From a virus (Duplodnaviria > Caudoviricetes): a stretch of 64,000 nt of DNA. Position numbers and translations under genes: made by a program. Positions within the stretch are counted from its first letter, which is position 1; every line of letters begins with the position of its first letter. The stretch is from IMG/VR virus record IMGVR_UViG_2901966883_000003. One strand, given 5' to 3'. The notes beneath the pieces were generated by a model. The model was not told the origin of the DNA. It made no database searches and saw only the letters and a list, made by a program, of their open reading frames with translations. Positions 23,332 through 64,000 of the stretch are shown piece by piece.

Positions 23332-23344
23332 GGTAGGTGAAGAT

Positions 23345-41900: not shown

Positions 41901-42356
41901 ATGAAAGGAAAACTCATGGTCTATGATATTGGGGGCTATATCGGTATGATAATGGGAGCAGTTAGCTTTTTAATCGGAGGATTTACCCCAGCAACAGTGT
42001 TTTTCCTTGTGTTTAATCTAATTGATTTGTTTACAGGACTTGCAAATGCCACTAATAATGGTGAAATAGAGTCTAAGATATTTACAAAAGGTATCTTTAA
42101 AAAGGCTGGAATGTGGTGCGTAATTATCGTAGCTCATGGTCTTGATATGGTAGTCTTTGGTGGTGCTGATATAACCAGACTCCCAGTATTAATGACATTA
42201 CTAGCAAACGAAGGTATTTCTATTGTAGAAAATGCTGGTAAGTTAGGTGTAACTATACCAAAATCATTAGTTAAGTATCTAGCTCAATTAGAAGACAAGT
42301 CTAATAATGAGTTAAAAGAAAAGTTAGATAATAACAAGGACGACAATAAGGAATAA
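41901..42356 (+). CDS. holin (toxin secretion/phage lysis holin family)
   Basis: IDLFTG...KGIFKK...NEGISIVENAGKLGVTIP signature. Confidence 0.9.
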   Translation: MKGKLMVYDIGGYIGMIMGAVSFLIGGFTPATVFFLVFNLIDLFTGLANATNNGEIESKIFTKGIFKKAGMWCVIIVAHGLDMVVFGGADITRLPVLMTLLANEGISIVENAGKLGVTIPKSLVKYLAQLEDKSNNELKEKLDNNKDDNKE

Positions 42357-46374: not shown

Positions 46375-49300
46375 TTGGCTAGTCAAAACTTAAACATAAA
46401 AGTCAAGTTAGACTTTGACGAAACGAGCTTAAAGAATTTAAATCTAGGCACAGTAAGAGTAGACCCAGATGTAAATCACTTTAAGAGTAAGTTAAGGTCT
46501 GCTTTGAATGGTAATTTTAAGATTACCCCAAAGATAAACACAAAGGGTATATCTAACCAACTAAACAACATCAAGAACGATATGAGGGAATTTAGAAACG
46601 CTGCTAAAGACCCTATCAAGATTAATTTTGATGTTGATAAAGATATACTTAGTGATTTAGCTGTTGTATCAAGACAATTAGAGAAGATACAAAAAGCTAG
46701 TGCCAGTGCAACTAAGATGAAGTTGTTTGGCATGAGTGGGATTAGTAAAACTGGTGATGACCTATCAACATTGGTTACTGCCGCTCGTAAAGCTAATAAG
46801 GAAATTACAGCCTTAGAAGCTAAAAAGAAAGCATTAGAGTCAACAGGTCGTTCATTAAGTGATAAGGACGCTCTTAAATTAGGTGATTTCCAAAAGCAAG
46901 CTCAAGAATATAGCAATGCGATAGAGAAAATCATATCAAGTAGAGAGCGTTTAGAAAAGCAAGCTCTACAAAGTACATTTAAAAACCCCAACAAACCAAC
47001 TGGGGAAGAAAAGCAAGCGTTAAATGCTTTAAATGAAAAGTATGCAGCGTTAAAGGCTCAAGCACAAGAGTATCAAAAGATAAGTGCTTCTCAAAAAATT
47101 GTTACAGAAAACAATGCTATACAAAAAGCCCAATTAGAAGCCCAAACACAATTTACAAAAGAGCGTGCAAGAGCTGAGAAGGATTTAATCAAGTCTGGTG
47201 AAAGGCTGATTAAACTCAAACAGGAAAGAGTTAAATTAGACCAACTAGAAAAGGAAAGTCAGCAGACAGTTCGTGAAGAAGATAGGAAAGCTGCTCTCGA
47301 ACGTGAAATCGGACATAAGCAAGAAGAATATAATGAACTAGCTAAAAAGGTTAAAGAATACAACCCAGACCTAGTTAAAGAAATGGGTCGTAGACAACAT
47401 GGTAATAGTTCTGAAATTCAATCAGCTAGGGCAGAAGGTACTATTGTAGCTGGCATACGTGGTAGAGAAGAGGCATATAAGGAACTTGAGGGAAGTTTAA
47501 AACGTCAAGTATCTTTATACAAGCAATTAGCTAACGCTGAAAACTCACAAGCTAAACGTCAAGCTAGACGCAATATTGAAGATGAAAGAAATAAAGAGGC
47601 TAACCTTAGACAAAGAATTAAGGACGAAGGTTGGACAAGTGCCGCTCATGAAAGACGAGTTAGTGCTTTATCAGAACAAGTAGGTGTAACTGGTAGACAA
47701 GCTAGAAGACAACGTAGAACACGAGTTGGGTTTAATGCGACAATGGACGTTTACAACATGGCACAACAAGGTGCTTATGCTGTTGCTAGTGCTGTTCAAG
47801 GTATTAGTGAAGTTGACGCTGCTATTACTCGTGTTACTAAAGTTGCTAATGCACCACAAAAAGAGATAGAAGCATTTAGTAAATCAATCTACAAAAATGC
47901 TTCTGCGGTAGGTAAAACAGCACCAGAATATGCTGACGCTGTTGAACAATGGATTACAACTGGTAAGTCATTAAAACAATCTATCGGTTTGGCTAAAGAC
48001 TCTGTTATGGGTTCTTTCGTTGGTAATGTAGATGTTAATGACATGGTTAAGTACATGGCTGTTCCATTGAACTCATTTAGAAAAGAAGGACTTAAATCTA
48101 AAGATGTTATCAATAGTATGAACCAAGTTTCTAACAAGAACGCTATTGAAATGGAAGATTTAGGGCAAGCATATTCTAAGGCTAGTTCTGTTGTAGCAAG
48201 TACGGGTACTACATTTAGTCAGTTGACTGGTATGATTACTGGTGCTCAAACAGCTACTCGTGCTGGTGGTGATGTTGTTGGACGTTCCATCAAGGCAATC
48301 TCACTTAACTTCTCTAAGATGAGTTCTGGTGTTACAGCAACAGATAAGAAACGTTCCGAGTTCTTTCATGGATTGGGTGTCGATTTAAAGACATCTGATG
48401 GAAAGATGAAATCCACATATCAAATTATGAATGATTTATCTAAGGTATGGGGCAAGTTAAGTAAACAACAAAAATCTGACGCTGCTTTATATGCTGCTGG
48501 TAAGGAACATTCCAACCAATTTACAGGTATGCTAGATAATTGGAAAACAGTTCAAAAGGCTATGCGTGAGTCACAAGGACAAGTAAATCTTGTTGATAAA
48601 GGGCATGGTTCTGCTTTCCAAGAATTTGAGAAACAACAACAATCAGTTCAAGCTCATTTAGCTACGTTGAAGAACACATGGGGTAGCTTAATCAATGATA
48701 TATTTGGTGGTAGAAAAGGTACTAATAATATTATTGATGGTGCTACTGGGTTGTTAAGTACATTGGATAACTTAGCTAATAATAAGATATTCAGAAACAC
48801 GGCTATGTTTACAGCTGCAGCGGTTGGTATTGGCACATTGCACAAGGCAATTTCTGGTTTGGCTTTATCTGCTAGAGAATTAACCGCAAGTAAATGGGAC
48901 GGTCTAATCGCTATGATGAATGGCGAAGGTATATCTGGATATGGCAAAGAAGTTCAAGCACGTTGGCATGAATTTCGTGGTATTAAAGACGATTACTCTA
49001 CAAGACGTAAGAAACAAGAAGAAACTTATCGCAAACAAAAGGTTCGTGATGAACTAGACGATGTCCTTGATAGAAACGGTTATGTCGGAAGTGGATATAC
49101 ATCTGGTAGAAAAGAAAAGCCTAAGAAACAAAAAGTTAAGGTTGTAGATACCCAAGAAGTAGAAAATGAAGGAAAAGCTATCAAGAAAACCGCACGAGAA
49201 ACAGAAAGTTTTGTAGCTACCACTTCAAATGCGGCTCGTGAAGGAACTAAGTTTGGTAGGGTTTTAGGTAAGGTCGGTAGTTTTGCTGGTTTAGCCTTAA

Positions 49301-52300
49301 CTGCACTTGGCCCAATAGGTACAATCCTTGATGTAGTTGGTTTGTCTTTAGGTTTATTAGAATTAACTGGTGCAAAACCATTTGAGAAAATTCAAAAAGC
49401 AATAGCACCAGCTAAAGCTGCACAAGATAGCTTTAACAGAAGTGTTAACGATAGTTTGTCTTCGTTCCAAAAGGCAAGCAATCAAGTCGACAAGAACCGT
49501 TTAGTTAATGGCAAGGCTGTTGAAACATTAAAGAGTTTCAAGGATATTCAAGATGAAGTTAGCAAAGCTGGAAAAGATGGTAACAATAAGTTTGATAAAG
49601 AGTCATTTGAAAAGATTAAGAGTGATTACAACGCTTTAGCAAAAGCTAATGGCATTAGTCTACGAATTGATGCAAACAACATTCAAATGGCTAATGAGCA
49701 ATTAGATGAGTTGCAACGTAGATTGCGTGAATTAGACTTTAGTTCTATTGGAAAAGTTACTGACAAGATAAGTGATGAATTAAAAGCAATAGATAAGGCT
49801 AACAACGCAAAAGATGACGCAATAAAAGGTAGCGGTGCTGTTGATAAAGCCAAGAAACAGGCAATTTCTGACTTAGAAAAACAGAAGAAACAAGCTATAA
49901 AAGACCTGGGTGCTGTACCTAGTTCTTTCGATAAAGAGGCAAAAGACAGATATGACTCTCGAAAACGTCAAATAGAAACAGATTTTGCGGAAAAAGAGGG
50001 TGACGTTAATAATAGGTCTAACGCTTCTTATCTAAAGAACGGATATTGGGCTAAACAATTCTGGGATAGCAAAGAGGGTAGAGATTATAATGGAACTGTT
50101 GCACAAGAACGTGCTAAGGTTCGCTCCCAATTAGAAAGTATGGGAGATTACATTAATCAAGGTAATTTCACCAAGTCTGACTATCAAAGAATGACTACTG
50201 CTCAATTAAAAGACGCAGAAGTGGCACAAGCTAGTAAGGTGTTTAAAGGCAATAGAAACGAACAGATATTACAACGTGCCTTGAACAATATAAAGAATGG
50301 TCGTAATCTAACCAAAGCACAACAAAAAGCGTTAGTTAATAGTGGTGTAGATGGATTAGAAAGTATTTCACGAAATTCTAGTGATTGGTCTGGAAATGAA
50401 GCTGATTTAGCTAGTCAAGCTGTAAAGAATAGTCAAAAGAGCAACAAACAGTCTGAAAAGCAATTAAAGAACATTCTATCTGCTGCTGGATTGTCAGATA
50501 AGCAAGTTAAGTCAGCTATGAACGCATATAAGAAGAGTCCATCCAGTTATATTACTGAAATGGGTAAGAATGGTGAAGTTGGTAAGTCAATGCTTAACCT
50601 TTCTGCTAAGTATGAAAATGCTTATGGCAAGAATTGGAACAAGGCAATGGCAGAACAACAAAAGATTTTGAGTAGCATGTATGGCTCAAAAAACACTGCG
50701 TTTGCTGAGGATTTAACAGACGAAACCACTGGATTACTTGATACAGCTAAGGTTGCCGACTTGTCCAATAACTTTATGAACAAGAATGGTAAGATTGACA
50801 AGGGATTAAGTGGTTATGGTTTCAAGACTGATAAATATGGTAACTTCGACATATCCGCCATTCAAAAACTTTCAAACATAAAAGGTAAGTACATGACTGA
50901 CGCAAGTGGTTCTGCTTATAAGTCAGTTGAAGACCTATTGAGTGATTTAGAAAGTGGTAAAGCTACTGGTACTGTACAAGCCTTAACAGCTGCCTCAATG
51001 GGTAATGGTGCTAAAACTTTAGCTGGTAAAAATGCCACAAAGAAAGGTCGTCAATCACTTGCTAACATGGTATTGGATAAGGGTGAAACAGCTGCTAATA
51101 GCATTTTATCTGATAGTGGTTATGAAAGTGAAGATACAAAAGCTGCTACAAAAGCTATTCAATCATTCAAATCAAGTCTAAAGAATGGTTTTAGTTCTAA
51201 GAGCAAGAAAGATAAGAGTGCTTTAAAAGACGCTATATCTGCTCTTGGTGGTAAAGACAACTTCAAAGACTGGTTAAAAGATAATAAAGACAAGTTCGGC
51301 GAAGATGATACGAAAGCTATTAATAAATATTTGAAGAATAGTGGCAAGTCTGGCAAAGGTAGCAAGAATAAATCGACCCATAATGATGGTTCACGTAAAC
51401 CAGGCGACAACAGCGTTAACGGTGATACAATCCAAGCTGCTATGGCTCGTGACGCTGTTCGCAGAATGAATAAAGGTAAGTCTGATAAGAACCTTGATAA
51501 AGCTACTTACAACATGTTAAAACAGGCTGCTAAGCAAGGTGACGCCAGCTCTAAATCAGCTTTAAAGGCATACGACAAGGCTCTTAAAGACTTTAAGAAA
51601 GCTGATAAGAACAATGATGGTAAGCTAAGCAAAGCAGAACAAAAGAAATATGAACAGTTAGGTAAGAAGAAAGCTGACGCTGAAAATAAAGGTAGACAGG
51701 CTGAAAACAAAAAGAATAAGAAAAAAGAAGACAAGGAAGATACAAAGTCTAATAAGTCTACTAAATCCAGTAAGTCTAAGAAGAAAGATTACTCAGATGA
51801 AAATGGTAAAAAGCGTAAACTCAGCGACTCAAAAGGTAGTAGACTAACAGCCAAAGAGAAACGTGACCTTGACAAGAAAGTTCAAGCTAGACAGAAAGAA
51901 ATGGCAAGGCTTGCCAAGAAGTATAACGCAGCCGATAAGAATAATGACGGTAAGTTATCTGCTAAAGAAAAGCGTAATTTAGCTAAGAAATTAAATGAAG
52001 AAGCTAAGATTGAGGCACAGGCAGCCAAGAAGAAGAGTAGTAAGTCTAGTTCTAGTTCCAAGTCTGCATCAAGTAAAGCCAAATCTAACAGTAAACAAAA
52101 GGCTATTAAAGTGCCTATCAAGGGTGAAGACAAAACCAAAGATACACTTAATAAAATTAAGTCTAAGGGTAAAAAGTCTAATATCAAAGTACCTATTAAA
52201 GGCGAGGATAAAACTAAGGATACGCTTAGCAAAATTAAATCTAAAGGCAAAAAAGCAAATATCAAAGTCCCTATCAAAGGTGAAGATAAAACTAAAGGTA

Positions 52301-55300
52301 CGATGGATAAGATTAAGTCCAAAGGTAAGGGGCAAAAGATAAAGATACCTGTTACTGCCGAAGACAAAACTGGTGATGGTATAAGCAAGATTAAATCTAA
52401 GGTTCAAAATATCAAGGCTAAGATACCTATTACTGCAGAAGATAAGACTGGTGATACAATTTCAGGTATCAAGAGTAAAATCACTGGTGTTAAGGCTCAA
52501 ATTAGTATTACAGCCAAAGATGATACAGCCTCAACAATATCTAGTATTCAAAGTTCGGTACAAGGACTTAAGGCAGAAGTAACCATCACCGCTGACGACC
52601 AAGCAAGTTCTGTTATTGATACTGTTAAGAGTGCGATTGACTCAATTCCACCTAGCCATAATACGGTTATTAGTGTTACTGGTGCAGAGGCAGCCGCAGC
52701 TGCAGCGACAAACGTAGCTAATGCTGTTAATAGTATTCCATCAGAAAAGAGTGTGTCAATTAGTGTTACAAAATCTGAAACAGTGACTGTAACAAAGAAA
52801 AACCATTCTGTTGGTATTAGTAGCTCGCTTGGTATATTGGGTAATGTTGACGCAAGCTACGCTGTAAATCCAAATCCATTCCGTTCTATGTCTGTGGCAA
52901 CCGATAATCCAGATGTGGTAAGTGCCATGAATGGTACTGCTGCTAATATGGGAATTAGAGATTATTCTGACGCTTCCGATGATACAAAGGTAAATGAAGA
53001 TTACTGGAGATACATGGGTAAGGAACTCTACAAAGGTTTACCATTAGATGAACAAGCGTCTAAATTGGAAAATGCTGTAACGCAAGCTGACGAAGATATG
53101 AATAAATTGATTAATATCGCACGTCAAAAGATTGATGTAGATAGAAAGCAATTAGCATATCAAAACGAAATGCGTGGTGCATATCAAAACCAATTAAATG
53201 ATGTTATGGGTAAATTACGTGGATATGGTTTCCGTACGAATGGTAACCAAATCACTAACTTAGACATCGCTAAGAACTTCAAAGGTGATAAGGCAAGTAA
53301 GGTTGATGAGTTGTTGAGTACCTACCAAAATGTATATCAAAACCTATCTGATGTAACTAAGAAGATAGATGAATTGAATACAGATATTTGGCAACAAAAC
53401 AAGAACATTAAAGATTACCAAGAAGAAATTGAGTCACAAGCTATTGAAAAGGCTCAGCGTGAATTGGAAATGGTGCAACGTTCAGTTGAATACTCCAAGA
53501 ATTTGGCAGATAGGGTAATCGATTCCTTGAGTGAAAAAGATTACGCTATGAAGTTAGGTTTCAGTGCAAAGGAAATTAATGAACAATCAGCTGGTTTAGA
53601 GAAATTAATAGGTCAATTCAATAAACTATCTGCTATGACATTCTCAAAGAAGGAACAAGCAGAGAAGATTGAAGATAGCTTAAATGATTTAAGACAAACT
53701 ATCTTAGATACTGCTGATAGCGTATTGGAATTACAAAACAATATGAAACAAGCAGAAATCGACCAATATACAGAAAACCTAACATCATTCACTGATACGA
53801 TTAATAACAATATTGACCGTTTGAAGTCTAATGTACAACAATTACAAGATGGATTGTTGAGTGGTACAACGTTTGATGATTTATTGAGTTCTAATCTAGC
53901 TGTTACTGATTTTGAGCAACAATCTGCTTTATCAAGACAAATGCAACAACGTATTGATTTAGAAAAGCAATTAGATAGTGCTATGGACGCTTTTGCCAAG
54001 AAGAATGTTGATAGACAAAACAATGTTGCTGCAGCTCAATTAAGAGTTGAACAAAATAAATATGCTCAAATGCTTAACCTTGCAAAAGATTATGCTAAAG
54101 GGTATGTAGGTGAAATCAATACTAAGTTTGCTACTTATGCAACACCAACGGGTCAAGCTAACTTAAATGATATTACTATTGGTGGAGGTCAACGTAGTGT
54201 TGAATATACCAAAGCAATGGTTAAATACCAAGATGAGTTAGTTAAATTGCGTGAAGAATACAATAAGCAACTTAAAGCTGCTGCAAATGACGAGCAACGT
54301 TCAAGAATTAATCAGAAGTTTGCTGTTCAACAAATGGATATGCAACGTGAGTTATACCAACAAATTATTAATAGTAATTTACAAGCTATTGATGATATGC
54401 AAAAGAAACTCAAGACGGAAGATTTGACAACAGAACAACGTCAAACATTAAAAGAAAGTATTGCACAATATGAAAAAGATAATATTGACGCTCAAAACAA
54501 TATTAAGGATATTATCAAGGAAAGATTTGAGTATGAAAATACACTTATTCAAGACCAATTAGATAAATACCAAAAGGTTACAGATACAGTAAGCAACTTA
54601 GTAACATTGGCTAAGACCTTACAAATGCAACCAGCAACTCAAGCTAAGTTGTTAGAGCAACAATACAAGTCTATTGAAAAGCAATACAACACCTATATTG
54701 CATTAGCTAACAAGCTAAGAGAGCAACAATCTGGATATGGTGTAAACTCATTTGAATGGAACACATTGCAAAAACAAATTGATGAAATGGACTCAAGAGT
54801 AAATCAATCTATTGCTGATTTATTGGAGGCTTCACGTTCACAATTTGAAAATACAATGGAGGCTACATCTAAGGAATTTGAAAAATCTATCAATGGTGGA
54901 CGTACTGCTGATAGAACTAAATTTGAAGATGACATCTGGATTGATGGTGTATCTAAGCAACTTAAACTAGAACAATTAAGACAAAAGTCTATTGAGTTAG
55001 AAAATGAAGTTGTGAAGAAACGTATTGAGGCTTTGGACGCTCAATCAAGAATGTCTAAGATACAAGCTGATTACGTAGATAAACAAATAGATGTGTTAAA
55101 TGCACAACAGGCTTTGGATAATACGTTAGGTAAACGTGATACTAAGGTATTAACACAAGGGGAAGACGGCAAGTTTAATTGGACTTACATGGCTAACCAA
55201 GATGATGTTGATACTGCACGAGAAAACTTAACACAAGCTAAAGTAGACATGGAAGATTACAAGAAACAGATGAAATCACAATTTGTTGACGCTGTTGAGA

Positions 55301-55794
55301 AAGTAATTGACGGTGCAAAGACAGGCGAATTGAATATTGATGAAGTTAAGACACGACTACAGCAATTACAAGACGCTTATGGTGTTGGTATTTTAGATGA
55401 TATTCCAGAATACAACGCTGGACAGCTTGAAAACATTATCCAACAATATACTGATTATGTGAATAGAAATAAGGACATTTTAGGCAAGTATGGTGACTCT
55501 AAAGCTGTTGGTAGCTTAACAGGTTACCAAGAAATCTTACAAGGGTTCACAGACCAATTCAAAGTGGTTGGTAAGGAAATCAGTGAAATGTTCGGTCAAC
55601 AATTAAGAGACGCTCTTAAATTAGACCCTAACCTTTCACCTAGAATACCTAACGCACCAACACAAACATTGTCTATGGTTATTCAACATCAAACATTAGA
55701 GTTCCCTAATGTAACAGACCCAACAGGATTTGAAGAAGCTATTAAGAACTTACCACAGATTGCTAAGCAACAAGTTCAATCTAAATCACTATAA
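46375..55794 (+). CDS. tail tape measure protein (TP901-type core)
   Basis: 3139 aa, largely helical; core ITRVTKV...MNQVSNK..I...DLGQA...GRSIKAI. Confidence 0.92.
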   Translation: MASQNLNIKVKLDFDETSLKNLNLGTVRVDPDVNHFKSKLRSALNGNFKITPKINTKGISNQLNNIKNDMREFRNAAKDPIKINFDVDKDILSDLAVVSRQLEKIQKASASATKMKLFGMSGISKTGDDLSTLVTAARKANKEITALEAKKKALESTGRSLSDKDALKLGDFQKQAQEYSNAIEKIISSRERLEKQALQSTFKNPNKPTGEEKQALNALNEKYAALKAQAQEYQKISASQKIVTENNAIQKAQLEAQTQFTKERARAEKDLIKSGERLIKLKQERVKLDQLEKESQQTVREEDRKAALEREIGHKQEEYNELAKKVKEYNPDLVKEMGRRQHGNSSEIQSARAEGTIVAGIRGREEAYKELEGSLKRQVSLYKQLANAENSQAKRQARRNIEDERNKEANLRQRIKDEGWTSAAHERRVSALSEQVGVTGRQARRQRRTRVGFNATMDVYNMAQQGAYAVASAVQGISEVDAAITRVTKVANAPQKEIEAFSKSIYKNASAVGKTAPEYADAVEQWITTGKSLKQSIGLAKDSVMGSFVGNVDVNDMVKYMAVPLNSFRKEGLKSKDVINSMNQVSNKNAIEMEDLGQAYSKASSVVASTGTTFSQLTGMITGAQTATRAGGDVVGRSIKAISLNFSKMSSGVTATDKKRSEFFHGLGVDLKTSDGKMKSTYQIMNDLSKVWGKLSKQQKSDAALYAAGKEHSNQFTGMLDNWKTVQKAMRESQGQVNLVDKGHGSAFQEFEKQQQSVQAHLATLKNTWGSLINDIFGGRKGTNNIIDGATGLLSTLDNLANNKIFRNTAMFTAAAVGIGTLHKAISGLALSARELTASKWDGLIAMMNGEGISGYGKEVQARWHEFRGIKDDYSTRRKKQEETYRKQKVRDELDDVLDRNGYVGSGYTSGRKEKPKKQKVKVVDTQEVENEGKAIKKTARETESFVATTSNAAREGTKFGRVLGKVGSFAGLALTALGPIGTILDVVGLSLGLLELTGAKPFEKIQKAIAPAKAAQDSFNRSVNDSLSSFQKASNQVDKNRLVNGKAVETLKSFKDIQDEVSKAGKDGNNKFDKESFEKIKSDYNALAKANGISLRIDANNIQMANEQLDELQRRLRELDFSSIGKVTDKISDELKAIDKANNAKDDAIKGSGAVDKAKKQAISDLEKQKKQAIKDLGAVPSSFDKEAKDRYDSRKRQIETDFAEKEGDVNNRSNASYLKNGYWAKQFWDSKEGRDYNGTVAQERAKVRSQLESMGDYINQGNFTKSDYQRMTTAQLKDAEVAQASKVFKGNRNEQILQRALNNIKNGRNLTKAQQKALVNSGVDGLESISRNSSDWSGNEADLASQAVKNSQKSNKQSEKQLKNILSAAGLSDKQVKSAMNAYKKSPSSYITEMGKNGEVGKSMLNLSAKYENAYGKNWNKAMAEQQKILSSMYGSKNTAFAEDLTDETTGLLDTAKVADLSNNFMNKNGKIDKGLSGYGFKTDKYGNFDISAIQKLSNIKGKYMTDASGSAYKSVEDLLSDLESGKATGTVQALTAASMGNGAKTLAGKNATKKGRQSLANMVLDKGETAANSILSDSGYESEDTKAATKAIQSFKSSLKNGFSSKSKKDKSALKDAISALGGKDNFKDWLKDNKDKFGEDDTKAINKYLKNSGKSGKGSKNKSTHNDGSRKPGDNSVNGDTIQAAMARDAVRRMNKGKSDKNLDKATYNMLKQAAKQGDASSKSALKAYDKALKDFKKADKNNDGKLSKAEQKKYEQLGKKKADAENKGRQAENKKNKKKEDKEDTKSNKSTKSSKSKKKDYSDENGKKRKLSDSKGSRLTAKEKRDLDKKVQARQKEMARLAKKYNAADKNNDGKLSAKEKRNLAKKLNEEAKIEAQAAKKKSSKSSSSSKSASSKAKSNSKQKAIKVPIKGEDKTKDTLNKIKSKGKKSNIKVPIKGEDKTKDTLSKIKSKGKKANIKVPIKGEDKTKGTMDKIKSKGKGQKIKIPVTAEDKTGDGISKIKSKVQNIKAKIPITAEDKTGDTISGIKSKITGVKAQISITAKDDTASTISSIQSSVQGLKAEVTITADDQASSVIDTVKSAIDSIPPSHNTVISVTGAEAAAAAATNVANAVNSIPSEKSVSISVTKSETVTVTKKNHSVGISSSLGILGNVDASYAVNPNPFRSMSVATDNPDVVSAMNGTAANMGIRDYSDASDDTKVNEDYWRYMGKELYKGLPLDEQASKLENAVTQADEDMNKLINIARQKIDVDRKQLAYQNEMRGAYQNQLNDVMGKLRGYGFRTNGNQITNLDIAKNFKGDKASKVDELLSTYQNVYQNLSDVTKKIDELNTDIWQQNKNIKDYQEEIESQAIEKAQRELEMVQRSVEYSKNLADRVIDSLSEKDYAMKLGFSAKEINEQSAGLEKLIGQFNKLSAMTFSKKEQAEKIEDSLNDLRQTILDTADSVLELQNNMKQAEIDQYTENLTSFTDTINNNIDRLKSNVQQLQDGLLSGTTFDDLLSSNLAVTDFEQQSALSRQMQQRIDLEKQLDSAMDAFAKKNVDRQNNVAAAQLRVEQNKYAQMLNLAKDYAKGYVGEINTKFATYATPTGQANLNDITIGGGQRSVEYTKAMVKYQDELVKLREEYNKQLKAAANDEQRSRINQKFAVQQMDMQRELYQQIINSNLQAIDDMQKKLKTEDLTTEQRQTLKESIAQYEKDNIDAQNNIKDIIKERFEYENTLIQDQLDKYQKVTDTVSNLVTLAKTLQMQPATQAKLLEQQYKSIEKQYNTYIALANKLREQQSGYGVNSFEWNTLQKQIDEMDSRVNQSIADLLEASRSQFENTMEATSKEFEKSINGGRTADRTKFEDDIWIDGVSKQLKLEQLRQKSIELENEVVKKRIEALDAQSRMSKIQADYVDKQIDVLNAQQALDNTLGKRDTKVLTQGEDGKFNWTYMANQDDVDTARENLTQAKVDMEDYKKQMKSQFVDAVEKVIDGAKTGELNIDEVKTRLQQLQDAYGVGILDDIPEYNAGQLENIIQQYTDYVNRNKDILGKYGDSKAVGSLTGYQEILQGFTDQFKVVGKEISEMFGQQLRDALKLDPNLSPRIPNAPTQTLSMVIQHQTLEFPNVTDPTGFEEAIKNLPQIAKQQVQSKSL

Positions 55795-55948
55795 TTAGTT
55801 GGCTCATATCTCTACTGTAAAAGGTGGGGATATGGGAGTACATATAATAAGTATTTTGATAATTGCAAATAAGTAATTTGATATTTTTGCAATATAAAAT
55901 ACGGATTTTATTAATCACAAATTTTTGAAGAAAGGAATGATATTAAAT

Positions 55949-57076
55949 TTGACACAACCAATTTTAAATATGGTGTCGAACTTTGACGCTACTGAAGAAC
56001 ATACATTAACTTATATGTATCTAGGGACAGAACGTTCGACAGTCAATCAAGTATCTATCCGTCCAGATGAACCTAATTCATCGCCAGTCTATACAGAAAC
56101 TAGAACAAGTTTTGACAAAGTTCATATTGTTCCTAGAAATGCTTTGAAGAATGGACTGAGTTATTTAGCTAAGGTTCGTGTTCAATTAGACAATGGGACA
56201 TGGACTGAATGGTCTGCTGAAATAGAATTTATGTGTTTGACTAAACCAAACTTCTATTTTGAACAAATTGGTAATAGCAAGTATGTCTATACAAATGAAA
56301 TGATGTTAAGTGTATTGTATGCACAAGAACAATCAGAAAAAGTAGAAACATACCAATTTATCTTACAAGACTATAACCATGTCAACATTCAAGAATACCC
56401 AGTACGTATTCCAACAGCAGATGACCCATTCAGATTTTCAGAACATATTAAAGGTTTACAAAAGGGTAAATTGTATTATGCAATAGTTAGAGTAACTACA
56501 AAGCATGGTATGGTCTGGGAAAGTCAAGGCAAGGAATTTGTTCCACAATATGTTATACCTACACTTAATTCAGTTGTACAGCCAGAATTAAATGAAGATG
56601 AAGGACAAATACAAGTTCATGCGTTCTTGAAACAAATCTTAGGTACACCAGCTAAACCTTACATTCCTAATCGTGCTACTGATAGTGATTATCACTATGA
56701 TTATTGGAGTCCAAGCGGTCAAACAGACGCTCATTACGTCATAATTCCAAAGGATAATCCATTAATGTTTACTCGTTTGGGCATGGCTAAGTCAAGTGAT
56801 TTTATAGCTAAATTATGGTGTGCTGGAGTAGATAATGGCTTATTCCTTCAATTTTCTACTAAGACAGATGAAAAGAACCCAACTGGTACTGGGGTGCAAA
56901 TCAATTTTGTTAAGCATGATGATTACATCACTATGGAAAAGAGCTTTGGTAGAGTTAAATCTCGTGCTAGGTCTAATGTAGTTCAAGGTCTAGGGCAACA
57001 ACCATTCTATCTCTATATCAAAGTAACAGAATATAGGGTGCAGATGATAATCGAAAAGATAGGTTACGGAGGTTAG
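55949..57076 (+). CDS. baseplate or distal tail protein with FN3-like domains
   Basis: After tape measure; TTG start after GAAAGGA; W.EWS and YYA.VRV motifs. Confidence 0.65.
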   Translation: MTQPILNMVSNFDATEEHTLTYMYLGTERSTVNQVSIRPDEPNSSPVYTETRTSFDKVHIVPRNALKNGLSYLAKVRVQLDNGTWTEWSAEIEFMCLTKPNFYFEQIGNSKYVYTNEMMLSVLYAQEQSEKVETYQFILQDYNHVNIQEYPVRIPTADDPFRFSEHIKGLQKGKLYYAIVRVTTKHGMVWESQGKEFVPQYVIPTLNSVVQPELNEDEGQIQVHAFLKQILGTPAKPYIPNRATDSDYHYDYWSPSGQTDAHYVIIPKDNPLMFTRLGMAKSSDFIAKLWCAGVDNGLFLQFSTKTDEKNPTGTGVQINFVKHDDYITMEKSFGRVKSRARSNVVQGLGQQPFYLYIKVTEYRVQMIIEKIGYGG

Positions 57077-57080
57077 AAAA

Positions 57081-58100
57081 ATGATAGTAGGACATACGTT
57101 TTTTGGTAGAGGAATGGAGGGAGTAGTATATGACACAGCAATCCCAACAGATGAACTTGATGAAGTATGGCTCGGAGAAGGAATGTATGACGAAGTGTTT
57201 GTGTCCGTTGATACCAGCATTAATTCCACAAATGAAAAGCCAACTGGATGGCAACTCAAAACTATCATGGACGCAAAGTTTAATGGTAGCTTGGAAGCTG
57301 GTTCGATTGATGGTGGTGGGCATAAAGTAGTTAAACTCCAATGTTATAGACGTGAATACAAAGCAGTTGATAGTGATTGGACACTTATTGCTCAATGGGA
57401 TTACGACCAAGATTACAATACTTATACAATCACAGATAGGTTTATTCAAAATGGTAAGACATATCAATATGCTATTGTTCCTTTATCTAAGGATATTCAA
57501 GGGGATAAGGTTATGTCAGAACCAATCGCAGCAGTGTTTAAAGGGAACTTCATATCAGATTTGCAACACAATTATGCTATGAACTTAAACTTTAGATTTG
57601 GTGATTTAAGATATAACAAAAACTCAAGCATTCAAACAACTCTTTCGGGACAATTTCCTATCGTAACACAAGGGGCTCAAAATTACCGTTCTGGTACAGC
57701 AACATTCCTCCCATTAACAAAACAACAAGAATTAGGCTTGAGAAATAGCCTAGATACAAAAGAAGAATTGAGAAATAGAAATCAAATTATCGAGTTCTTA
57801 AACAATGGTAAGATTAAGGTTATTAGACGTGATGACGGTGATATTATGGCAGTTGCTACAAATGATATTAACTTACAACCATTATCAGATAGCTTTGATG
57901 AATTATCTAACGTCACATTCTCATTCACAGAAGTAGGTAAATTAGATTACAATACAATGGAAAAATCTGGTTTAATTGCAACAGCTGGTTTGTCTAACTT
58001 TACTTATGATGAACATGGCGAAATCATCTTTGACGATACAAACTTGATTAAAGATGTGAATAAGAGTAGAAATGCTCAAAAGGTTTTAAATGATATTTAA
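57081..58100 (+). CDS. baseplate or distal tail protein
   Basis: TDRF....TYQYAIVP FN3-like motif; position. Confidence 0.65.
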   Translation: MIVGHTFFGRGMEGVVYDTAIPTDELDEVWLGEGMYDEVFVSVDTSINSTNEKPTGWQLKTIMDAKFNGSLEAGSIDGGGHKVVKLQCYRREYKAVDSDWTLIAQWDYDQDYNTYTITDRFIQNGKTYQYAIVPLSKDIQGDKVMSEPIAAVFKGNFISDLQHNYAMNLNFRFGDLRYNKNSSIQTTLSGQFPIVTQGAQNYRSGTATFLPLTKQQELGLRNSLDTKEELRNRNQIIEFLNNGKIKVIRRDDGDIMAVATNDINLQPLSDSFDELSNVTFSFTEVGKLDYNTMEKSGLIATAGLSNFTYDEHGEIIFDDTNLIKDVNKSRNAQKVLNDI

Positions 58101-58116: not shown

Positions 58117-60279
58117 TTGGATTTTACAGATAGGGAATTAATGAAAGGTAGTAACAACCACGTTCTACCTAATATCATTAGTGATTTAAGTGTAAAACCA
58201 GATAGTAGAATTGGTGAAGTTCTAAGACAACCAATCAGAAATATTGATACAGTTGTACAGGTTATTAATCGTGATGGGTCTGTATATCAAACAATCGAAG
58301 GTAAGGCTATATCTGGTAATATCTCAATAGACGCAACATCGCTTACTAGACGTACAGGTTCACTTACTTTAGCGGTTGATAAAGACTATCTACCTAAATC
58401 TGGAGGTATAGCATGGTTTGATAAGCAGTTTAAGTTATATCAAAGCATTATTGATATGGGGTCTTATAATAAAGAACCTATCAACTTCCTATTAGGTACG
58501 TTCGTTATCACAAATGAAAATCTAAGTATCAATACCACAAATAGTACGATTACCTTTACTTTAGAAGATAAGATGTCATTGTATGAAAATGCTACAACAG
58601 CATATCGAGTAAAGATACCTAGAGGACAAAAGATTGATAGTGCTATCCGTTCTGTTATGGAAGAAATGGGCGAAACAGTCTTTGGTAAAATGCACGAAAG
58701 TTCAGAACAAGAAGTAGTTCAATACGATTATATTAAGGAAATTGGGACAAGTAAACTTGATATAATTACAGACTTACGTGATATGTATATGGACTACACT
58801 TGTGGTTTTAATGTGCGTGGTGAGTTTGAATTTACTAAGATTGATGTACAAAAGGAAGATGAAGTTACACCAGCTAAATGGGACTTTGACCCAACAGGAG
58901 CAGATAGGTCTGATTTAATGGTTTCATTTTCAGAAGATTATAACTTTAAAGGGTTATATAATCATATTGTTGTATTTGGTGGTACATCATCTAAGACAAG
59001 GTACACTCCTTATGCAGAAGTTGGTTTAACCGACCCTAGTGTTCCTTACAATATTGACGCTATTGGTATGAGAACTAAAGTTGTGCAAAACAATGATTTA
59101 AGTGATGATATTCAATGCGTATCAGAAGCTAAGTATCATTTATGGCAAACAGCCCATTTACAAGAAACATGTGATATAACAACAGTTCCTATTTATGTAT
59201 TAGATGGCAAGGATATTATTACCATTGTTAATCCAGTAACCAAAGAAAAGAACAGATACATTATTGATAAGATAGGTATTGATTTTGGTGTAGACGGTAT
59301 TATGACTATTAATACACATAAATTACACTATGTACGTACTTCTTATGGAGATGTTGAGTCACCATTTGTTAAGACAATCAAGAACGGTATTGATAAGTTG
59401 GGTTGGTTATCGCTTGGCGAACAACGTATCAAAGATTGTTATGGTATCAGTGGTTCTGGTAAGAATATCATTCGTGTTCGTTTCTTCTCAGAAGAAGAAG
59501 GTGGCGAACAGGCTTATGTTCAAGGCTATCCAACAACTAAAGTTCAAACACTTGGTATTGATATACGAGATTTCAGAAATATCATTAAGAACAGCCAAAA
59601 TGGTGAAGTTCCTAATCGTTCTCGTGGTGACTATTTAGATAGAGTTCTAGCTCATGAAATGTTTCATGGTGTTTGCAATGATTACTATGGCTTTGACAAG
59701 GCTGCGGATATGCCACAATGGTTTAAAGAAGGATTTGCTGAATTTATTCATGGCGGTCGTGAACGTTACGAGTCATTAGATTATGATAGCTTTGCACAAA
59801 AGAAAAAGGCTTTAGTAGATAGAGCTGAATTGCAATTAAAAGGTGCATGGGGACAAAAGAATGGTTCGCAAACCATCGCTGTTTCAGAAGATTATACCAG
59901 TGCATTCTTGTTAGCTGCGACAATTTGGAAATTAGTTGGTAAAGACGGTATCAAGAAGATGTTTGAAGGCTTGCATGGAGAAGGTAACTTATGGTCTATA
60001 TTCCCTGTTAAGATATTAGAATTAGGTGGATATTTGGAAGTGCCTAAGAACCAAGAAGATAGAAATAATGATAAAGCTATACAAATCATTATTAATACCT
60101 TAAACAACTGGAATGATATTTGGAACTGGTTACAAGATAGTAAAGATAGAGATACTGTTTCAGTAGGTGGTATTCACTTTAATAACCTTTATGGAAAAGC
60201 ATTAGACGCTGATGAAGTATTTAATGAAGGTGAAGCTAAGACTGATAGTATTGGTTTTAAAATTGAATATGAATATTAA
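58117..60279 (+). CDS. tail/baseplate hub protein fused to a C-terminal gluzincin (flagellinolysin-like) metallopeptidase
   Basis: N-terminal hub-like domain (TRRTGSLTL); HEMFH...WFKEGFAE zinc motif. Confidence 0.8.
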   Translation: MDFTDRELMKGSNNHVLPNIISDLSVKPDSRIGEVLRQPIRNIDTVVQVINRDGSVYQTIEGKAISGNISIDATSLTRRTGSLTLAVDKDYLPKSGGIAWFDKQFKLYQSIIDMGSYNKEPINFLLGTFVITNENLSINTTNSTITFTLEDKMSLYENATTAYRVKIPRGQKIDSAIRSVMEEMGETVFGKMHESSEQEVVQYDYIKEIGTSKLDIITDLRDMYMDYTCGFNVRGEFEFTKIDVQKEDEVTPAKWDFDPTGADRSDLMVSFSEDYNFKGLYNHIVVFGGTSSKTRYTPYAEVGLTDPSVPYNIDAIGMRTKVVQNNDLSDDIQCVSEAKYHLWQTAHLQETCDITTVPIYVLDGKDIITIVNPVTKEKNRYIIDKIGIDFGVDGIMTINTHKLHYVRTSYGDVESPFVKTIKNGIDKLGWLSLGEQRIKDCYGISGSGKNIIRVRFFSEEEGGEQAYVQGYPTTKVQTLGIDIRDFRNIIKNSQNGEVPNRSRGDYLDRVLAHEMFHGVCNDYYGFDKAADMPQWFKEGFAEFIHGGRERYESLDYDSFAQKKKALVDRAELQLKGAWGQKNGSQTIAVSEDYTSAFLLAATIWKLVGKDGIKKMFEGLHGEGNLWSIFPVKILELGGYLEVPKNQEDRNNDKAIQIIINTLNNWNDIWNWLQDSKDRDTVSVGGIHFNNLYGKALDADEVFNEGEAKTDSIGFKIEYEY

Positions 60280-60375
60280 ATAATATTAAAAAAGTTTACT
60301 AATATCTATTGACTTTTAGTAAGTAATATGTTATAATAATTAAGTTAAATTTATGATAAGGTGGGGTAAGGCTTC

Positions 60376-61077
60376 GTGAGTAGAAGTGTGTTTCCTAATG
60401 GGATAGATACATTCCCAGAATTATTTGACCTACCTAGTGATAAGGTTAATGACGCTAACAGATTAACCGAATTGAAAGGTAAGGCAAGCTTAGATACAAA
60501 TGAACAAAATGAAATTAAAGCTCTAACAGCAAAATTACAAGACTATATGATTACTCCAGAACAATGGAATAGAATTACAGATTGTATGACTGCTTTAGAA
60601 ACATTTTTCGATAAAAATGTAAGGGGTTACATCTTGCAAAAGCAAGAAGAATGGCGACACTATGTTGACTCATTTAGATTTGTTGGTAATTGGACTAACC
60701 AAACTAAATACAGTTTCCAAAACTTAGTTAACTATCGTGGACATCTATTCTTAGTATTAAAAGATGTGGTTGCTGATAATAATCATACTCCAGATTTAAC
60801 CCCAGATACTTATCGTCAAGTTGCTTTTAAGGGCGATAAGGGTGATGTAGGTTTAAATGCTACATTCAAAGGCGATTGGAATGGTAGTACAACATATCAC
60901 TTAGGTGACGCAGTATTCAAAGATGGTATTGTGTTTGTAGCAAAGAATGATAGCACAGGTAAAGAACCTAATATCAATTCAGCAAACTGGTTTCCATATC
61001 CTCAATCTATTATTGTTGGGGATAGTAAGCCACAAAACCTACATCCAGCTATTAGCTATTTAGAAGTCTATAACTAA
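60376..61077 (+). CDS. baseplate protein with small carbohydrate-binding-like repeats
   Basis: G.W...T.Y..(N/G)xV repeated twice. Confidence 0.65.
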   Translation: MSRSVFPNGIDTFPELFDLPSDKVNDANRLTELKGKASLDTNEQNEIKALTAKLQDYMITPEQWNRITDCMTALETFFDKNVRGYILQKQEEWRHYVDSFRFVGNWTNQTKYSFQNLVNYRGHLFLVLKDVVADNNHTPDLTPDTYRQVAFKGDKGDVGLNATFKGDWNGSTTYHLGDAVFKDGIVFVAKNDSTGKEPNINSANWFPYPQSIIVGDSKPQNLHPAISYLEVYN

Positions 61078-61084
61078 AAAGTAG

Positions 61085-61483
61085 GTGAAACTCTTGAATG
61101 ATTTACAAAAAGGAATTATTGATACAGTAGATGTAGTAGTTGACTCTAAGGTTAGCCGACTAAACATTCCACAAACTTATGTAGGTGTAGTTGTACAAGA
61201 CCCAGAAGGCTACAAATGTATCGTAGAGATAAATAAAGTAGAAAGGACATGCACACTTCCCGAACACTTGCATAATTGGATTAGTAAAGATGACATTGTG
61301 TATGTACAAGACGCAATGGGCAATGGACAGGAATGGGTAGTAACTGGCTCATCTGGTTCAACACGTAAACAAACTATGGTTATCAGTAACAATCAAGAGG
61401 GTAAAGGTGATTTAGTAAGTGGAGTTACTAAATTTGCTGATGATAATGGTAATTTAACAGATAATGATTTAGTGATTAATTAA
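61085..61483 (+). CDS. hypothetical virion protein
   Basis: ORF track. Confidence 0.65.
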   Translation: MKLLNDLQKGIIDTVDVVVDSKVSRLNIPQTYVGVVVQDPEGYKCIVEINKVERTCTLPEHLHNWISKDDIVYVQDAMGNGQEWVVTGSSGSTRKQTMVISNNQEGKGDLVSGVTKFADDNGNLTDNDLVIN

Positions 61484-61502
61484 TAAGTAGGTGAAGAAAT
61501 AG

Positions 61503-62828
61503 TTGACCTTAATTAAGCGAACAAGGTACAGAATGGGAGATGATATCTTCTATTTTGATAATGACGCAGTAACAACTAAAGTATTAGACAATAATAAAAA
61601 TGAGTTAGGGACATTACAAGAGTATTTATTTGAAGGCAAGACTGTTACAAGTGGCAGCGTTACTGATATAAAGCACTCTGGAGTGTACAAAGTTAAAGGG
61701 TTGAGTGATTTACCTAGTGAAATTCCTAGCAACCAATACTCAATTCTTGAAGTAAAAGCCATTGGTAACCAAGATAACCCAGACGTAATCTTCTATAAAG
61801 TTACATCGCCATCTGGTGTATCTAAAGAAATGACCGTTTCTGGTTCTAATCGAAGTGGTTGGACTTTAGGTGGGGTTCAATTACAAAATGCTATTAATAG
61901 TTTAGATAGCCAAGTAGGTGAGTTGCGTGATTTAGAAACAGGGAACAAGTCTAGTTTGGTTAATGCTGTGAATGAATTGCAAAGCAAAATTGACACAGTA
62001 AACGACAATACGGACAGCGTTAATAGTGCTTTAAATGAATATAAAAAACACAACCATGATGACAGATATATCCGTAAAACAGGTACAGGTGATAGTTTCA
62101 AAGGCACATTAGTATTTGAAAATGGGGCTAACCTAGCATTTAGAAGTTCTACAGGTACAGCACCTAGTGTAATTAGTCGTAACGGTAATAACCTTGTATT
62201 TGGTAATGGTGAAATGGGATTGAATATTCAATCCAAAGGTGATGTTTACCTTAATGGACAAAAGGTTGTTACAACAGGTACGAACGGTTTAAATGCTGAT
62301 AAGGTTGGTGGAGTTGACGCTAACCTATATGCTCGTAAAGACCAAAATAATGATTGGTCTGGTGTTCAAACATATAGTAATGCAGCACCATTAAGATTTG
62401 TTGTAGGCAATGTACAAGGTTCTGCTATACCAATTCAATTCATGAGTGCCAAGAGTAACAAAGGTAATGTAGGTTATATTTCCAAGTCTGATGGTGATGG
62501 CATGTCTATTAGCCCAGATGGGAACAACGAATTGCTTGGTTTGTATAGCGATAGAACATATACAACAGGTCATTTGGTATTTGCTGGAGGTACTGAAAAG
62601 GATATTCGATTTGGTAACGGTCATATGGGCTTCTATTTCAAAGAAGATGGGAATGGTCGTTTAGGTGCATGGGACTGGAATAAGAACCGTCTCATCTGGC
62701 GATATGACACAGATACAAACTATATGGAAATGGGTGAAGCTCCTAAGTGGCAAGGACGTAGAATGTTCTTACAAGACCCACAACCACAAGGTGATGTTCC
62801 ATATGGTTCTATCTGGATTGGTTTCTAG
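61503..62828 (+). CDS. tail fibre or minor structural protein
   Basis: LET.NKSSLV.AVNE, HNHDDRY and GLNADKVGG fibre motifs. Confidence 0.75.
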   Translation: MTLIKRTRYRMGDDIFYFDNDAVTTKVLDNNKNELGTLQEYLFEGKTVTSGSVTDIKHSGVYKVKGLSDLPSEIPSNQYSILEVKAIGNQDNPDVIFYKVTSPSGVSKEMTVSGSNRSGWTLGGVQLQNAINSLDSQVGELRDLETGNKSSLVNAVNELQSKIDTVNDNTDSVNSALNEYKKHNHDDRYIRKTGTGDSFKGTLVFENGANLAFRSSTGTAPSVISRNGNNLVFGNGEMGLNIQSKGDVYLNGQKVVTTGTNGLNADKVGGVDANLYARKDQNNDWSGVQTYSNAAPLRFVVGNVQGSAIPIQFMSAKSNKGNVGYISKSDGDGMSISPDGNNELLGLYSDRTYTTGHLVFAGGTEKDIRFGNGHMGFYFKEDGNGRLGAWDWNKNRLIWRYDTDTNYMEMGEAPKWQGRRMFLQDPQPQGDVPYGSIWIGF

Positions 62829-62840
62829 GAGGTTGACGTA

Positions 62841-63524
62841 TTGGGAAAGGTAAAGATATGGAATAGTAGGGCTAATGACTGGTGGGACGTAGCTCATAAC
62901 ACTAGAATATGGAACGGTCATAACTGGCAAAAAGCTAAGATACGTGGCTGGGACGGACATAGATGGGTTATGTTGAGTGAAGAACGTCATGTAGACACAT
63001 GGGAAGCAACAGGAACGTGGAGTTTTTGGTCTGAATTGCATGGAAGACAAGCTAAAGGCTGGAGTGCTTTAGTCGCCCCCAACAAATTAGTTCAGGGTGA
63101 TTACTCGCCCTTTAGAGATAGCTGGGATTGGTCTTGCGAAACAAGTATGATGTGGTTTAATGATGGCGACATAAGAAGCAAGTTGGCTGGAGCTAGAATT
63201 GAGTCAGTTAAATTATATCTACACAATGAACACTGGTACTATTATGCTGGTGGCGTAGCTGTTGTTGGTACGCATAATAACCGTTCTGGTTGGGCTAACA
63301 CATTCCAAGAAAGTAACGCAGCAGTAGCACAAAAACGTATAGGCTATGGCGAAGGTTCATGGATAGACTTGCCAACTTGGGTAGGAGATAATTTTAGAGA
63401 TAATAAGTTATCTGGTCTAACCTTAGACGGTAATTATAGTAAAAATGGTCTGTATTATGGATTTTTCTCTGGTGCTAAAAGTGGTTGGAAAAGCCCTAAA
63501 TTACAAATAACTTATTGGAAGTAG
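62841..63524 (+). CDS. Trp-rich virion or receptor-binding protein
   Basis: KIWN...W N-terminus and PKLQITY C-terminus typical of fibre-tip proteins. Confidence 0.6.
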   Translation: MGKVKIWNSRANDWWDVAHNTRIWNGHNWQKAKIRGWDGHRWVMLSEERHVDTWEATGTWSFWSELHGRQAKGWSALVAPNKLVQGDYSPFRDSWDWSCETSMMWFNDGDIRSKLAGARIESVKLYLHNEHWYYYAGGVAVVGTHNNRSGWANTFQESNAAVAQKRIGYGEGSWIDLPTWVGDNFRDNKLSGLTLDGNYSKNGLYYGFFSGAKSGWKSPKLQITYWK

Positions 63525-63622: not shown

Positions 63623-64000
63623 TTGAGCAAAAAGAAGACACAAGAACAATGGGAAAAGGAATACAAAGCACTTGTGGGTGATGAGTACACATTCTTAGAA
63701 CCTTATCAAAAAGGGAATGTAAAAATCATGTGTAGGCATAACAAGTGTGGCAATGAGTGGAAAGTGACTCCACACCATTTCTTACATGACGTACGTTGCC
63801 CCAAGTGTAGGGTTGGTAGCAAGAAAAGCAACGAAAAATGGTTGAGTAAAGTTGAAGAACTTGTGGGAAATGAATATACTTTTTTAGAAGAATATGTAAG
63901 TAATAGAACTAAACTAAGATGTATTCATAATAAGTGTGGTAATGAATTTAAAATGTCGCCACATGATTTCTTAGACCCTAGAAGAAAATACAGATGTCCT
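63623..64000 (+). CDS. zinc-finger repeat protein, probable free-standing homing endonuclease (partial)
   Basis: TTG after GAGGTG; repeated H.KCGNE(W/F)..(T/S)P..FL....CP modules; nuclease domain not visible in window. Confidence 0.6.
   Translation, partial: MSKKKTQEQWEKEYKALVGDEYTFLEPYQKGNVKIMCRHNKCGNEWKVTPHHFLHDVRCPKCRVGSKKSNEKWLSKVEELVGNEYTFLEEYVSNRTKLRCIHNKCGNEFKMSPHDFLDPRRKYRCP

Follow-up and report, generated by a model that had tools for sequence, protein, structure and literature searches.

Do phage tails carry enzymes that cut ordinary proteins, and, if so, what would such an enzyme do at the tip of a tail? The question is raised by a gene at positions 58117..60279 (+ strand) of IMG/VR virus record IMGVR_UViG_2901966883_000003, a Caudoviricetes record of which a 64,000-nucleotide stretch (the window) was analysed. 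The gene encodes a 720-residue protein that begins with a TTG start codon, and a Shine-Dalgarno sequence (AAGGTGGTG) lies 9 nt 5' of this start. A coding sequence 98.8% identical to it is present in the plasmid pMP1046B (129,218 bp) of the pig isolate Ligilactobacillus salivarius JCM1046. A preliminary description, made from the letters and translations of the window, had proposed a tail hub protein carrying a zinc metallopeptidase domain that resembles flagellinolysin, the protease domain of proteolytic flagellins. Our analysis leaves very little doubt about this architecture, a baseplate hub of the tail-associated lysin (Tal) type joined to a homolog of the flagellinolysin domain, and in this phage lineage the position usually held by a cell-wall hydrolase is probably taken by an enzyme that cuts proteins.

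Architecture of the hub-protease protein

The N-terminal part of the protein (residues ~20-404; 58174..59328, + strand) was identified by PHROG, Pfam and Foldseek as a baseplate-hub domain with the fold of gp27, Mu gp44, VgrG and siphophage Tal proteins. Residues 27-398 matched the PHROG 1887 family ('tail protein') with an E value of 2e-43, and residues 310-401 matched the Pfam family DUF5048 (PF16467) with an E value of 1e-8. The full-length AlphaFold2 model, built on 49 family members, had a mean predicted local distance difference test score (pLDDT) of 84.8. Foldseek comparison with the PDB matched its N-terminal domain to more than 40 solved baseplate hubs (E 3e-15 to 1e-9), with template modeling (TM) scores of 0.65-0.72 relative to targets of 305-330 residues. 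The solved hubs include Mu gp44, MuSo2, the phiCD508 needle, T4 gp27 and VgrG proteins, and the tips of lactococcal phage p2 (ORF16), staphylococcal phage 80alpha, T5 and NF5 (Tal) were matched as well. The family and fold matches thus confirm as a hub the N-terminal domain of about 400 residues that the preliminary description had called hub-like.

The gene is flanked by the tape measure and distal tail genes on its 5' side and by the fibre genes on its 3' side. Distant relatives that consist of the hub, Geobacillus virus E3 GP45 (396 aa) and Enterocloster phage PMBT24 (471 aa), have no protease domain. Because these hubs are without the long extension, the protease domain is, judging from the sequences compared, an accessory addition to the hub. 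A linker (residues ~405-419; 59329..59373, + strand) separates the two domains and is predicted to be short and flexible, with pLDDT below 50 at residues 408-413 of the full-length model.

Homology and fold of the protease domain

The C-terminal part of the protein (residues ~420-720; 59374..60276, + strand) is a gluzincin metallopeptidase domain of the flagellinolysin type (MEROPS M101), as indicated by NCBIfam, AlphaFold2 and VIA-align. The NCBIfam model NF033876, named 'flagellinolysin', matched residues 423-716 with an E value of 1e-31 when the entire protein was searched and 1.7e-32 when the domain was searched alone. The match covers positions 46-316 of the 384 positions of the model, which are its protease part, and since the domain as a whole is matched, the HEMFH sequence within it is not a chance occurrence of HExxH.

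When 1.84 billion representative proteins were searched exhaustively with phmmer, 180 matched the phage domain. The best 150 of these comprised 9 hub fusions, 110 flagellins in which Flagellin_N, Flagellin_C or both flank the match, and 31 proteins with neither a hub nor a flagellin flank, which are fragments or other secreted proteins. Ten of the 31 were scanned with Pfam, and some were found to have RTX repeats, LamG or an S-layer SbsC-type domain. The closest relatives beyond the phage family are genuine flagellins of Clostridia, to which NCBI gives the name flagellinolysin; flagellins so named were matched with phmmer E values from 6e-16 down and are 35-44% identical to the phage domain. 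A profile of the phage domain aligned with the hypervariable regions of flagellinolysins over positions 2-277 of 280 (E 1e-40 to 1e-25), showing that the homology extends beyond the active site to the whole domain. The likeness to flagellinolysin, proposed from motifs in the preliminary description, is therefore borne out by the NCBIfam model, by the preponderance of flagellins among the best phmmer matches and by the span of the profile alignment.

The fold agrees with this homology. The AlphaFold2 model of the isolated domain had a pLDDT of 93.6 and a predicted TM score of 0.92, and an exhaustive structural search against representatives with VIA-align placed peptidase domains of M9 collagenases at or near the top (ColT, Z 12.4; ColG, Z 12.1; the Grimontia collagenase, Z 11.6), together with the M30 protease lugdulysin (Z 11.7); M1 aminopeptidases and thermolysin came next. 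The ColT and ColG matches comprise 227 aligned residues with a root mean square deviation of ~4 A and 11-12% identity. An M9 collagenase is the nearest structure of flagellinolysin as well (Eckhard et al., PMC5595980). The VIA-align search was needed for this ranking because Foldseek comparison of the domain model with the PDB gave weak gluzincin matches (E 0.03-0.3). The M9 family, which the preliminary description had linked to the domain, did not appear at the level of sequence profiles: Pfam gave nothing meaningful for the isolated C-terminal domain up to an E value of 10, Peptidase_M9 (PF01752) included. Some flagellinolysins give sub-threshold M9 matches in Pfam.

Other searches with the protease domain returned no relatives. 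No PDB sequence was found by phmmer, no convincing relative was found among the BFVD viral models by Foldseek (best E 6e-3, TM <0.3), and neither megablast nor tblastn matched the domain in the 50,697 deposited phage genomes of INPHARED, in which the hub part alone finds distant relatives. A profile of the joint alignment with flagellinolysins, compared with PDB sequences, found ordinary flagellins only, through the D0/D1 columns of the flagellin rows, and was set aside as uninformative on the protease. Pfam detected neither Flagellin_N nor Flagellin_C in the hub-protease protein. It begins with a hub, ends with the protease and scores 113 bits against NF033876, whose equivalog cut-off is 205 bits; it is therefore not a flagellin, nor a flagellinolysin sensu stricto. 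The low score is explained by the flagellin D0/D1 parts of the model, which are missing here.

Conservation of the catalytic residues

The motifs named in the preliminary description are all present. The zinc-binding and catalytic motif HEMFH (59653..59667, + strand) occupies residues 513-517 and aligns with the HExxH of flagellinolysins. The sequence WFKEGFAEF, which contains E538 and E542, lies 18 residues after HEMFH; within it, EGFAE (59728..59742, + strand) provides the putative third zinc ligand E538, the 'basement' residue A541 and E542. Upstream, the IDIRDF block (59560..59571, + strand) contains D482 and D485, candidate equivalents of the Asp of a Ca2+ site, which are invariant in the family and nearly so in flagellinolysins.

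Conservation was assessed across 49 full-length members of the family, whose identity to the query ranges from 41% to 59%. H513, E514, H517, E538, E542, D482, D485, Y593 and D679 are invariant in all 49, and position 541 is Ala in 44, Ser in three and Gly in two. When tail proteins and flagellinolysins were aligned jointly, W430, D508-R509, H513, E514, H517, W535, E538, G539, G546, R550, Y593, D679, G685 and F714 were invariant. In this alignment EGFAE falls in the pattern W-F-x-E-G-x-A-E, with E and G invariant and A nearly so. The same Glu-x-x-Ala pattern is formed by E262 and A265 of FliA(H), the flagellinolysin of Clostridium haemolyticum, and the Ca2+ site of that enzyme includes Asp206, 27 residues ahead of the first His (PMC5595980). 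D485 and D482 are 28 and 31 residues ahead of H513, respectively, and either is a candidate equivalent of Asp206. The invariance of E538 and the gluzincin neighbours of the predicted fold agree with the third-ligand Glu and the gluzincin assignment proposed earlier, E538 being a predicted ligand.

Mean pairwise identity was 54% for the protease domain and 50% for the hub. All 31 IMG/VR loci that carry the domain have HExxH and W-x-x-E-G in one frame of ~700 aa, and for 27 of them this frame was confirmed to encode the hub as well. Because the catalytic residues are invariant, the protease is at least as conserved as the hub and the motifs are intact at every locus, this is the pattern expected of an enzyme and not of a decayed or purely structural module. 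The C-terminal parts of Tal proteins are often receptor-binding modules, and the protease fold could likewise serve as a binding or structural tip without catalysis; all catalytic and metal-binding residues, however, remain invariant down to ~30% identity, Bacillus-type members included, which makes a purely binding role very improbable. On the conservation data, the domain is likely to be an active protease.

Proposed role at the tail tip

The explanation that we favour is that a Tal-type hub carries an M101-type protease that cuts a host-envelope protein at entry, and as a whole we hold it with moderate confidence. On the model of gp27, Mu gp44 and siphophage Tal, a hub trimer would plug the distal end of the tail tube beneath the tape measure. 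Since the hub is homologous to trimeric hubs, three protease domains would be placed at the very tip of the virion. H513, H517 and E538 are the predicted Zn2+ ligands, E514 would be the general base, and the conserved Asp pair D482/D485 is a likely Ca2+ site. At adsorption the tip protease would act on a protein component of the Gram-positive envelope and cut its ordinary L-peptide bonds; a surface-anchored or wall-associated protein layer and a protein receptor are candidates, and cleavage would clear or open a path for the tail tube and tape measure. The protease would stand in for the peptidoglycan hydrolase domains that other Tal proteins have in the same position. For the specific step in which the domain acts on a host-envelope protein during entry, the chances appear nearly even, or slightly less than that.

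A peptidoglycan endopeptidase that cuts the stem peptide or cross-bridge, equivalent to the M23 or NlpC/P60 domains of tail-associated lysins, would suit the location of the domain, which sits in the C-terminal slot of the hub where Gram-positive siphophages have their Tal lysin domains. It would also account for a virion in which Pfam detected no other wall hydrolase or lysin domain in the tape measure, hub and adjacent tail proteins. The characterised members of the family, however, cut ordinary proteins and peptides with a specificity like that of matrix metalloproteinases, and the nearest folds are collagenases and aminopeptidases and not LAS, M23 or M15 wall peptidases. We know of no HExxH gluzincin established as a peptidoglycan hydrolase, and a murein substrate is unlikely. 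Characterised flagellinolysins are Zn/Ca-dependent, EDTA-sensitive endopeptidases that cut proteins and prefer large hydrophobic P1' residues (PMC5595980, PMC7643111), and it is from these activities, together with the fold neighbours, that a protein substrate is proposed here. The endolysin (GH25 and LysM) is a separate gene, downstream in a relative.

The protein cut might instead be the phage's own. In siphophage tips the hub touches the C-terminal end of the tape measure, and proteolytic processing of tape measure or Tal proteins takes place in other phages, as with lambda gpH and Tuc2009 Tal, so a maturation or triggering protease acting on the tape measure, hub or fibres at assembly or ejection can be envisaged. 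Recombinant flagellinolysin, moreover, cleaves itself (PMC7643111). Against such processing, hub-only relatives with similarly long tape measures have no protease domain, indicating that the protease is not needed for assembly of this type of tail, and the C-terminal extension of a hub normally faces away from the lumen of the tube. A substrate outside the host cell, in mucus, biofilm matrix or food proteins, as for depolymerases and enhancin-type mucinases, would agree with the many carriers that are gut lactobacilli and with the matrix or biofilm degradation that the flagellinolysin papers propose as the role of the family. The fusion is nevertheless kept in phage-plasmids of a marine-sponge Vagococcus and of soil and rhizosphere Bacillus, which have no matrix in common with gut lactobacilli, and three copies on the tail axis are too few and badly placed when compared with fibre- or spike-borne depolymerases. 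Self-processing and matrix digestion each seem quite unlikely, more so than murein hydrolysis, and these two and pure binding are all less likely than cleavage of an envelope protein. Flagella and flagellin were also considered as targets and rejected; L. salivarius, L. reuteri and L. fermentum are non-motile. Some carrier host species, in Liquorilactobacillus and Vagococcus, are motile.

Several observations weigh against cleavage of a host-envelope protein by the tail tip. Activity, virion presence and substrate are inferred by homology for all family members, the zinc site is predicted from residues and fold, and the NF033876 score stays under its cut-off. L. salivarius has no S-layer known to us. 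The blank that Pfam returned for a virion lysin is weak evidence. The very different habitats of the hosts point to a bacterial rather than an environmental substrate, but to no particular one. Finally, pMP1046B has been treated as a plasmid or chromid (PMC4165912); as a phage, it is known here from its genes alone. A stronger version of the envelope-cleaving explanation, in which the tail-tip protease is needed for infection through its cleavage of one particular protein of the host surface and the module was captured from a clostridial proteolytic flagellin, is tentative and more doubtful than the entry step itself; protease action would then be a step in phage entry that removes a barrier or processes a receptor.

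Distribution, annotation and origin

The fusion is carried by 'plasmids' and viral contigs of 100-148 kb from Lactobacillales and Bacillus. The Lactobacillus-type carriers are L. salivarius, Limosilactobacillus mucosae, L. reuteri, L. fermentum, Liquorilactobacillus mali and L. hordei, and the others are Vagococcus fluvialis, Enterococcus mundtii, Bacillus velezensis and B. wiedmannii. Their habitats include the pig and human gut, a marine sponge (Vagococcus) and soil or rhizosphere (Bacillus). The NCBI/RefSeq product name of the hub proteins is 'flagellin' in L. salivarius (NZ_CP007648.1), L. reuteri, Liquorilactobacillus, Vagococcus and Enterococcus mundtii. This naming appears to be a systematic misannotation, with the flagellinolysin model presumably behind it. 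The RefSeq/PGAP 'flagellin' labels on hub proteins of non-motile lactobacilli should be corrected.

In an unrooted maximum-likelihood tree of 67 domains, the tail-borne domains formed one group with a Shimodaira-Hasegawa-like approximate likelihood ratio test (SH-aLRT) support of 99. A second split, also with an SH-aLRT of 99, separated the tail group and nine flagellins from 41 other domains of flagellins and secreted proteins. Eight of these nine flagellins were looked up, and all five that had a source name were from Clostridia (Tepidibacter, Inconstantimicrobium, Clostridium oryzae, C. oceanicum and an unclassified Clostridia metagenome-assembled genome). A single origin of the hub-protease fusion is well supported by the tree, and within Bacilli the fusion appears to have become fixed in a single lineage of phage-plasmids of 100-148 kb.

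By this phylogeny, the protease module would share a common origin with the protease in the hypervariable region of clostridial proteolytic flagellins. Unless the root falls on or inside the tail branch, the tail domain would descend from a flagellin-borne one; midpoint rooting agrees with flagellin-borne ancestry, although it is no proof. Direct transfer from flagellin to phage is plausible and fairly likely. Flagellinolysin-type domains also occur in secreted proteins that are not flagellins, namely those with RTX, LamG or S-layer SbsC-type domains, which shows that the M101 family is wider than 'proteolytic flagellins'. The exchange of domains between flagellins and phage tails suggested in the preliminary description is thus plausible, given the domain that the two share, whereas a direction of exchange did not emerge, since RTX, LamG and S-layer-type proteins carry the domain too.

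The tail module and the phage-plasmid

The element, an L. salivarius phage-plasmid of 127-129 kb whose phage would be long-tailed, is ~99% identical to pMP1046B, and the nearest IMG/VR record (127,335 bp) has direct terminal repeats and is rated complete. In the literature, pMP1046B was described as a largely cryptic 'candidate chromid', with no mention of flagellin or protease and a single use of the word 'tail' (PMC4165912). On the basis of its genes, we regard this 129-kb 'chromid' as a phage-plasmid.

PHROG and Pfam scans of the window identified a portal gene (23324-24832, + strand) and a major-tail-like protein with an fn3 domain (34926-36026, + strand). The tape measure protein (46375..55794, + strand; 3139 aa) matched PHROG 4211, 28 and 167 and PF10145 (PhageMin_Tail), and its length predicts a tail of roughly 0.45 um, taking about 1.5 A per residue. 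Tape measures of relatives have 2900 aa and more. Near residue 1740 of the tape measure, Pfam detected EF-hand-like motifs (EF-hand_5, EF-hand_6). The tail is probably non-contractile, since none of the PHROG matches across the tail module scanned bore the name of a sheath protein. Two genes (55925..58100, + strand) separate the tape measure from the hub; their products, of 383 aa and 339 aa, have weak Ig/CBM-like matches and a match to PHROG 27355 and are probably distal tail proteins; a phmmer search of PDB sequences with the 339-aa protein gave no match. The gene order around the hub, including the two pre-hub genes, is common to the L. fermentum, L. salivarius and B. wiedmannii elements.

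Four tail-fibre-like genes encoding 233, 132, 441 and 227 aa (60376..63524, + strand) follow the hub-protease gene; they match PHROG tail fibre families, and one has a weak CBM_5_12 match. A near-consensus sigma-70-type promoter (60309-60337, + strand; TTGACT, 17 nt, TG-n-TATAAT) with 11 of 12 matches and an extended -10 lies in the 96 nt that separate the hub-protease gene from the first fibre gene; it is the top site of the 4.8 kb scanned, which suggests that the fibre genes downstream may have a promoter of their own. A further protein of 1697 aa (36162-41255, + strand), encoded after the major tail protein and before the tape measure region, had PblB-type, host-range and adsorption matches and a C-terminal Peptidase_S74 intramolecular-chaperone motif, and is probably a large side fibre or adhesin. 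A holin-like open reading frame is at 41901-42356. A tyrosine recombinase/integrase gene (44565-45527, + strand; PHROG 1 and 216) lies within the tail module, just 5' of the tape measure, and is kept in pMP1046B. At the end of the window, 3' of the fibre genes, is an open reading frame for an HNH endonuclease (63623-64000, + strand; PHROG 559 and 681), which may be a mobile insertion in the tail module; the corresponding place in pMP1046B is occupied by a 2.4-kb hypothetical gene.

Significance and comparison with known systems

To our knowledge, the enzymes described at phage tail tips are glycan or murein hydrolases. A literature search on tail and hub metallopeptidases found no published description of this fusion, a search for DUF5048 found no paper, and the flagellinolysin papers (PMC5595980, PMC7643111) do not mention phages. 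The fusion is a concrete case of a module shared between flagellins and phages, and it extends the M101 family, found in these papers only within flagellar filaments, to a second extracellular nanomachine. If the stronger version of the explanation is correct, no protein-cutting (non-murein) enzyme borne by a virion would have been documented at a phage tail tip before this one. A conserved zinc protease that cuts proteins in this position would add proteolysis to the routes by which phages are known to breach the Gram-positive envelope, and would suggest that lactobacilli, Vagococcus and Bacillus have barriers or receptors made of protein.

Among secretion machines, a parallel is given by the 'evolved' VgrG spikes of type VI secretion, in which a gp27-type hub/spike delivers a C-terminal metallopeptidase effector to the surface of a target cell. 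The protein described here, unlike these, is encoded by a phage-plasmid with capsid, portal and tape measure genes and its peptidase belongs to another family; neither a gp5-like needle nor an immunity gene was detected. The clostridial collagenases of family M9 (ColG, ColH, ColT) have the same gluzincin architecture and gave the best structural matches, but the phage protein has no activator domain, its identity to them is 11-12% and it has no M9 profile match. Flagellinolysin itself does not cut collagen (PMC5595980).

Compared with flagellinolysins such as FliA(H) of C. haemolyticum and HgrFlaMP of Hylemonella gracilis, the whole peptidase domain of ~290 residues is homologous. Features common to both are HExxH, Glu-x-x-Ala, an Asp block ahead of HExxH, the conserved motifs DY and DTGSIGG, and a terminal beta-strand. 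They differ in that the phage protein is without D0/D1 helices and its protease is a C-terminal appendage of a hub and not an insert in a hypervariable region. A phage particle would have three copies of the enzyme, whereas a flagellar filament has thousands. The loop from H517 to the third ligand has 21 residues here, four fewer than the 25 reported for FliA(H).

The likeness in overall design is to the Tal lysins, including the M23 enzymes of Tuc2009 and TP901-1 and those of enterococcal phages (PMC10194240), which also combine a gp27-like hub with an enzymatic C-terminal module and whose genes are likewise 3' of the tape measure and distal tail genes. A survey of 506 tail modules of enterococcal phages and prophages mentions no metallo- or zinc protease of this kind (PMC10194240). 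The enzymes of Tal lysins are peptidoglycan or teichoic-acid hydrolases, whereas the domain described here is an HExxH gluzincin akin to endopeptidases that cut proteins. A Tal-type hub with an enzymatic C-terminus is thus already known; the class of enzyme in that position is new.

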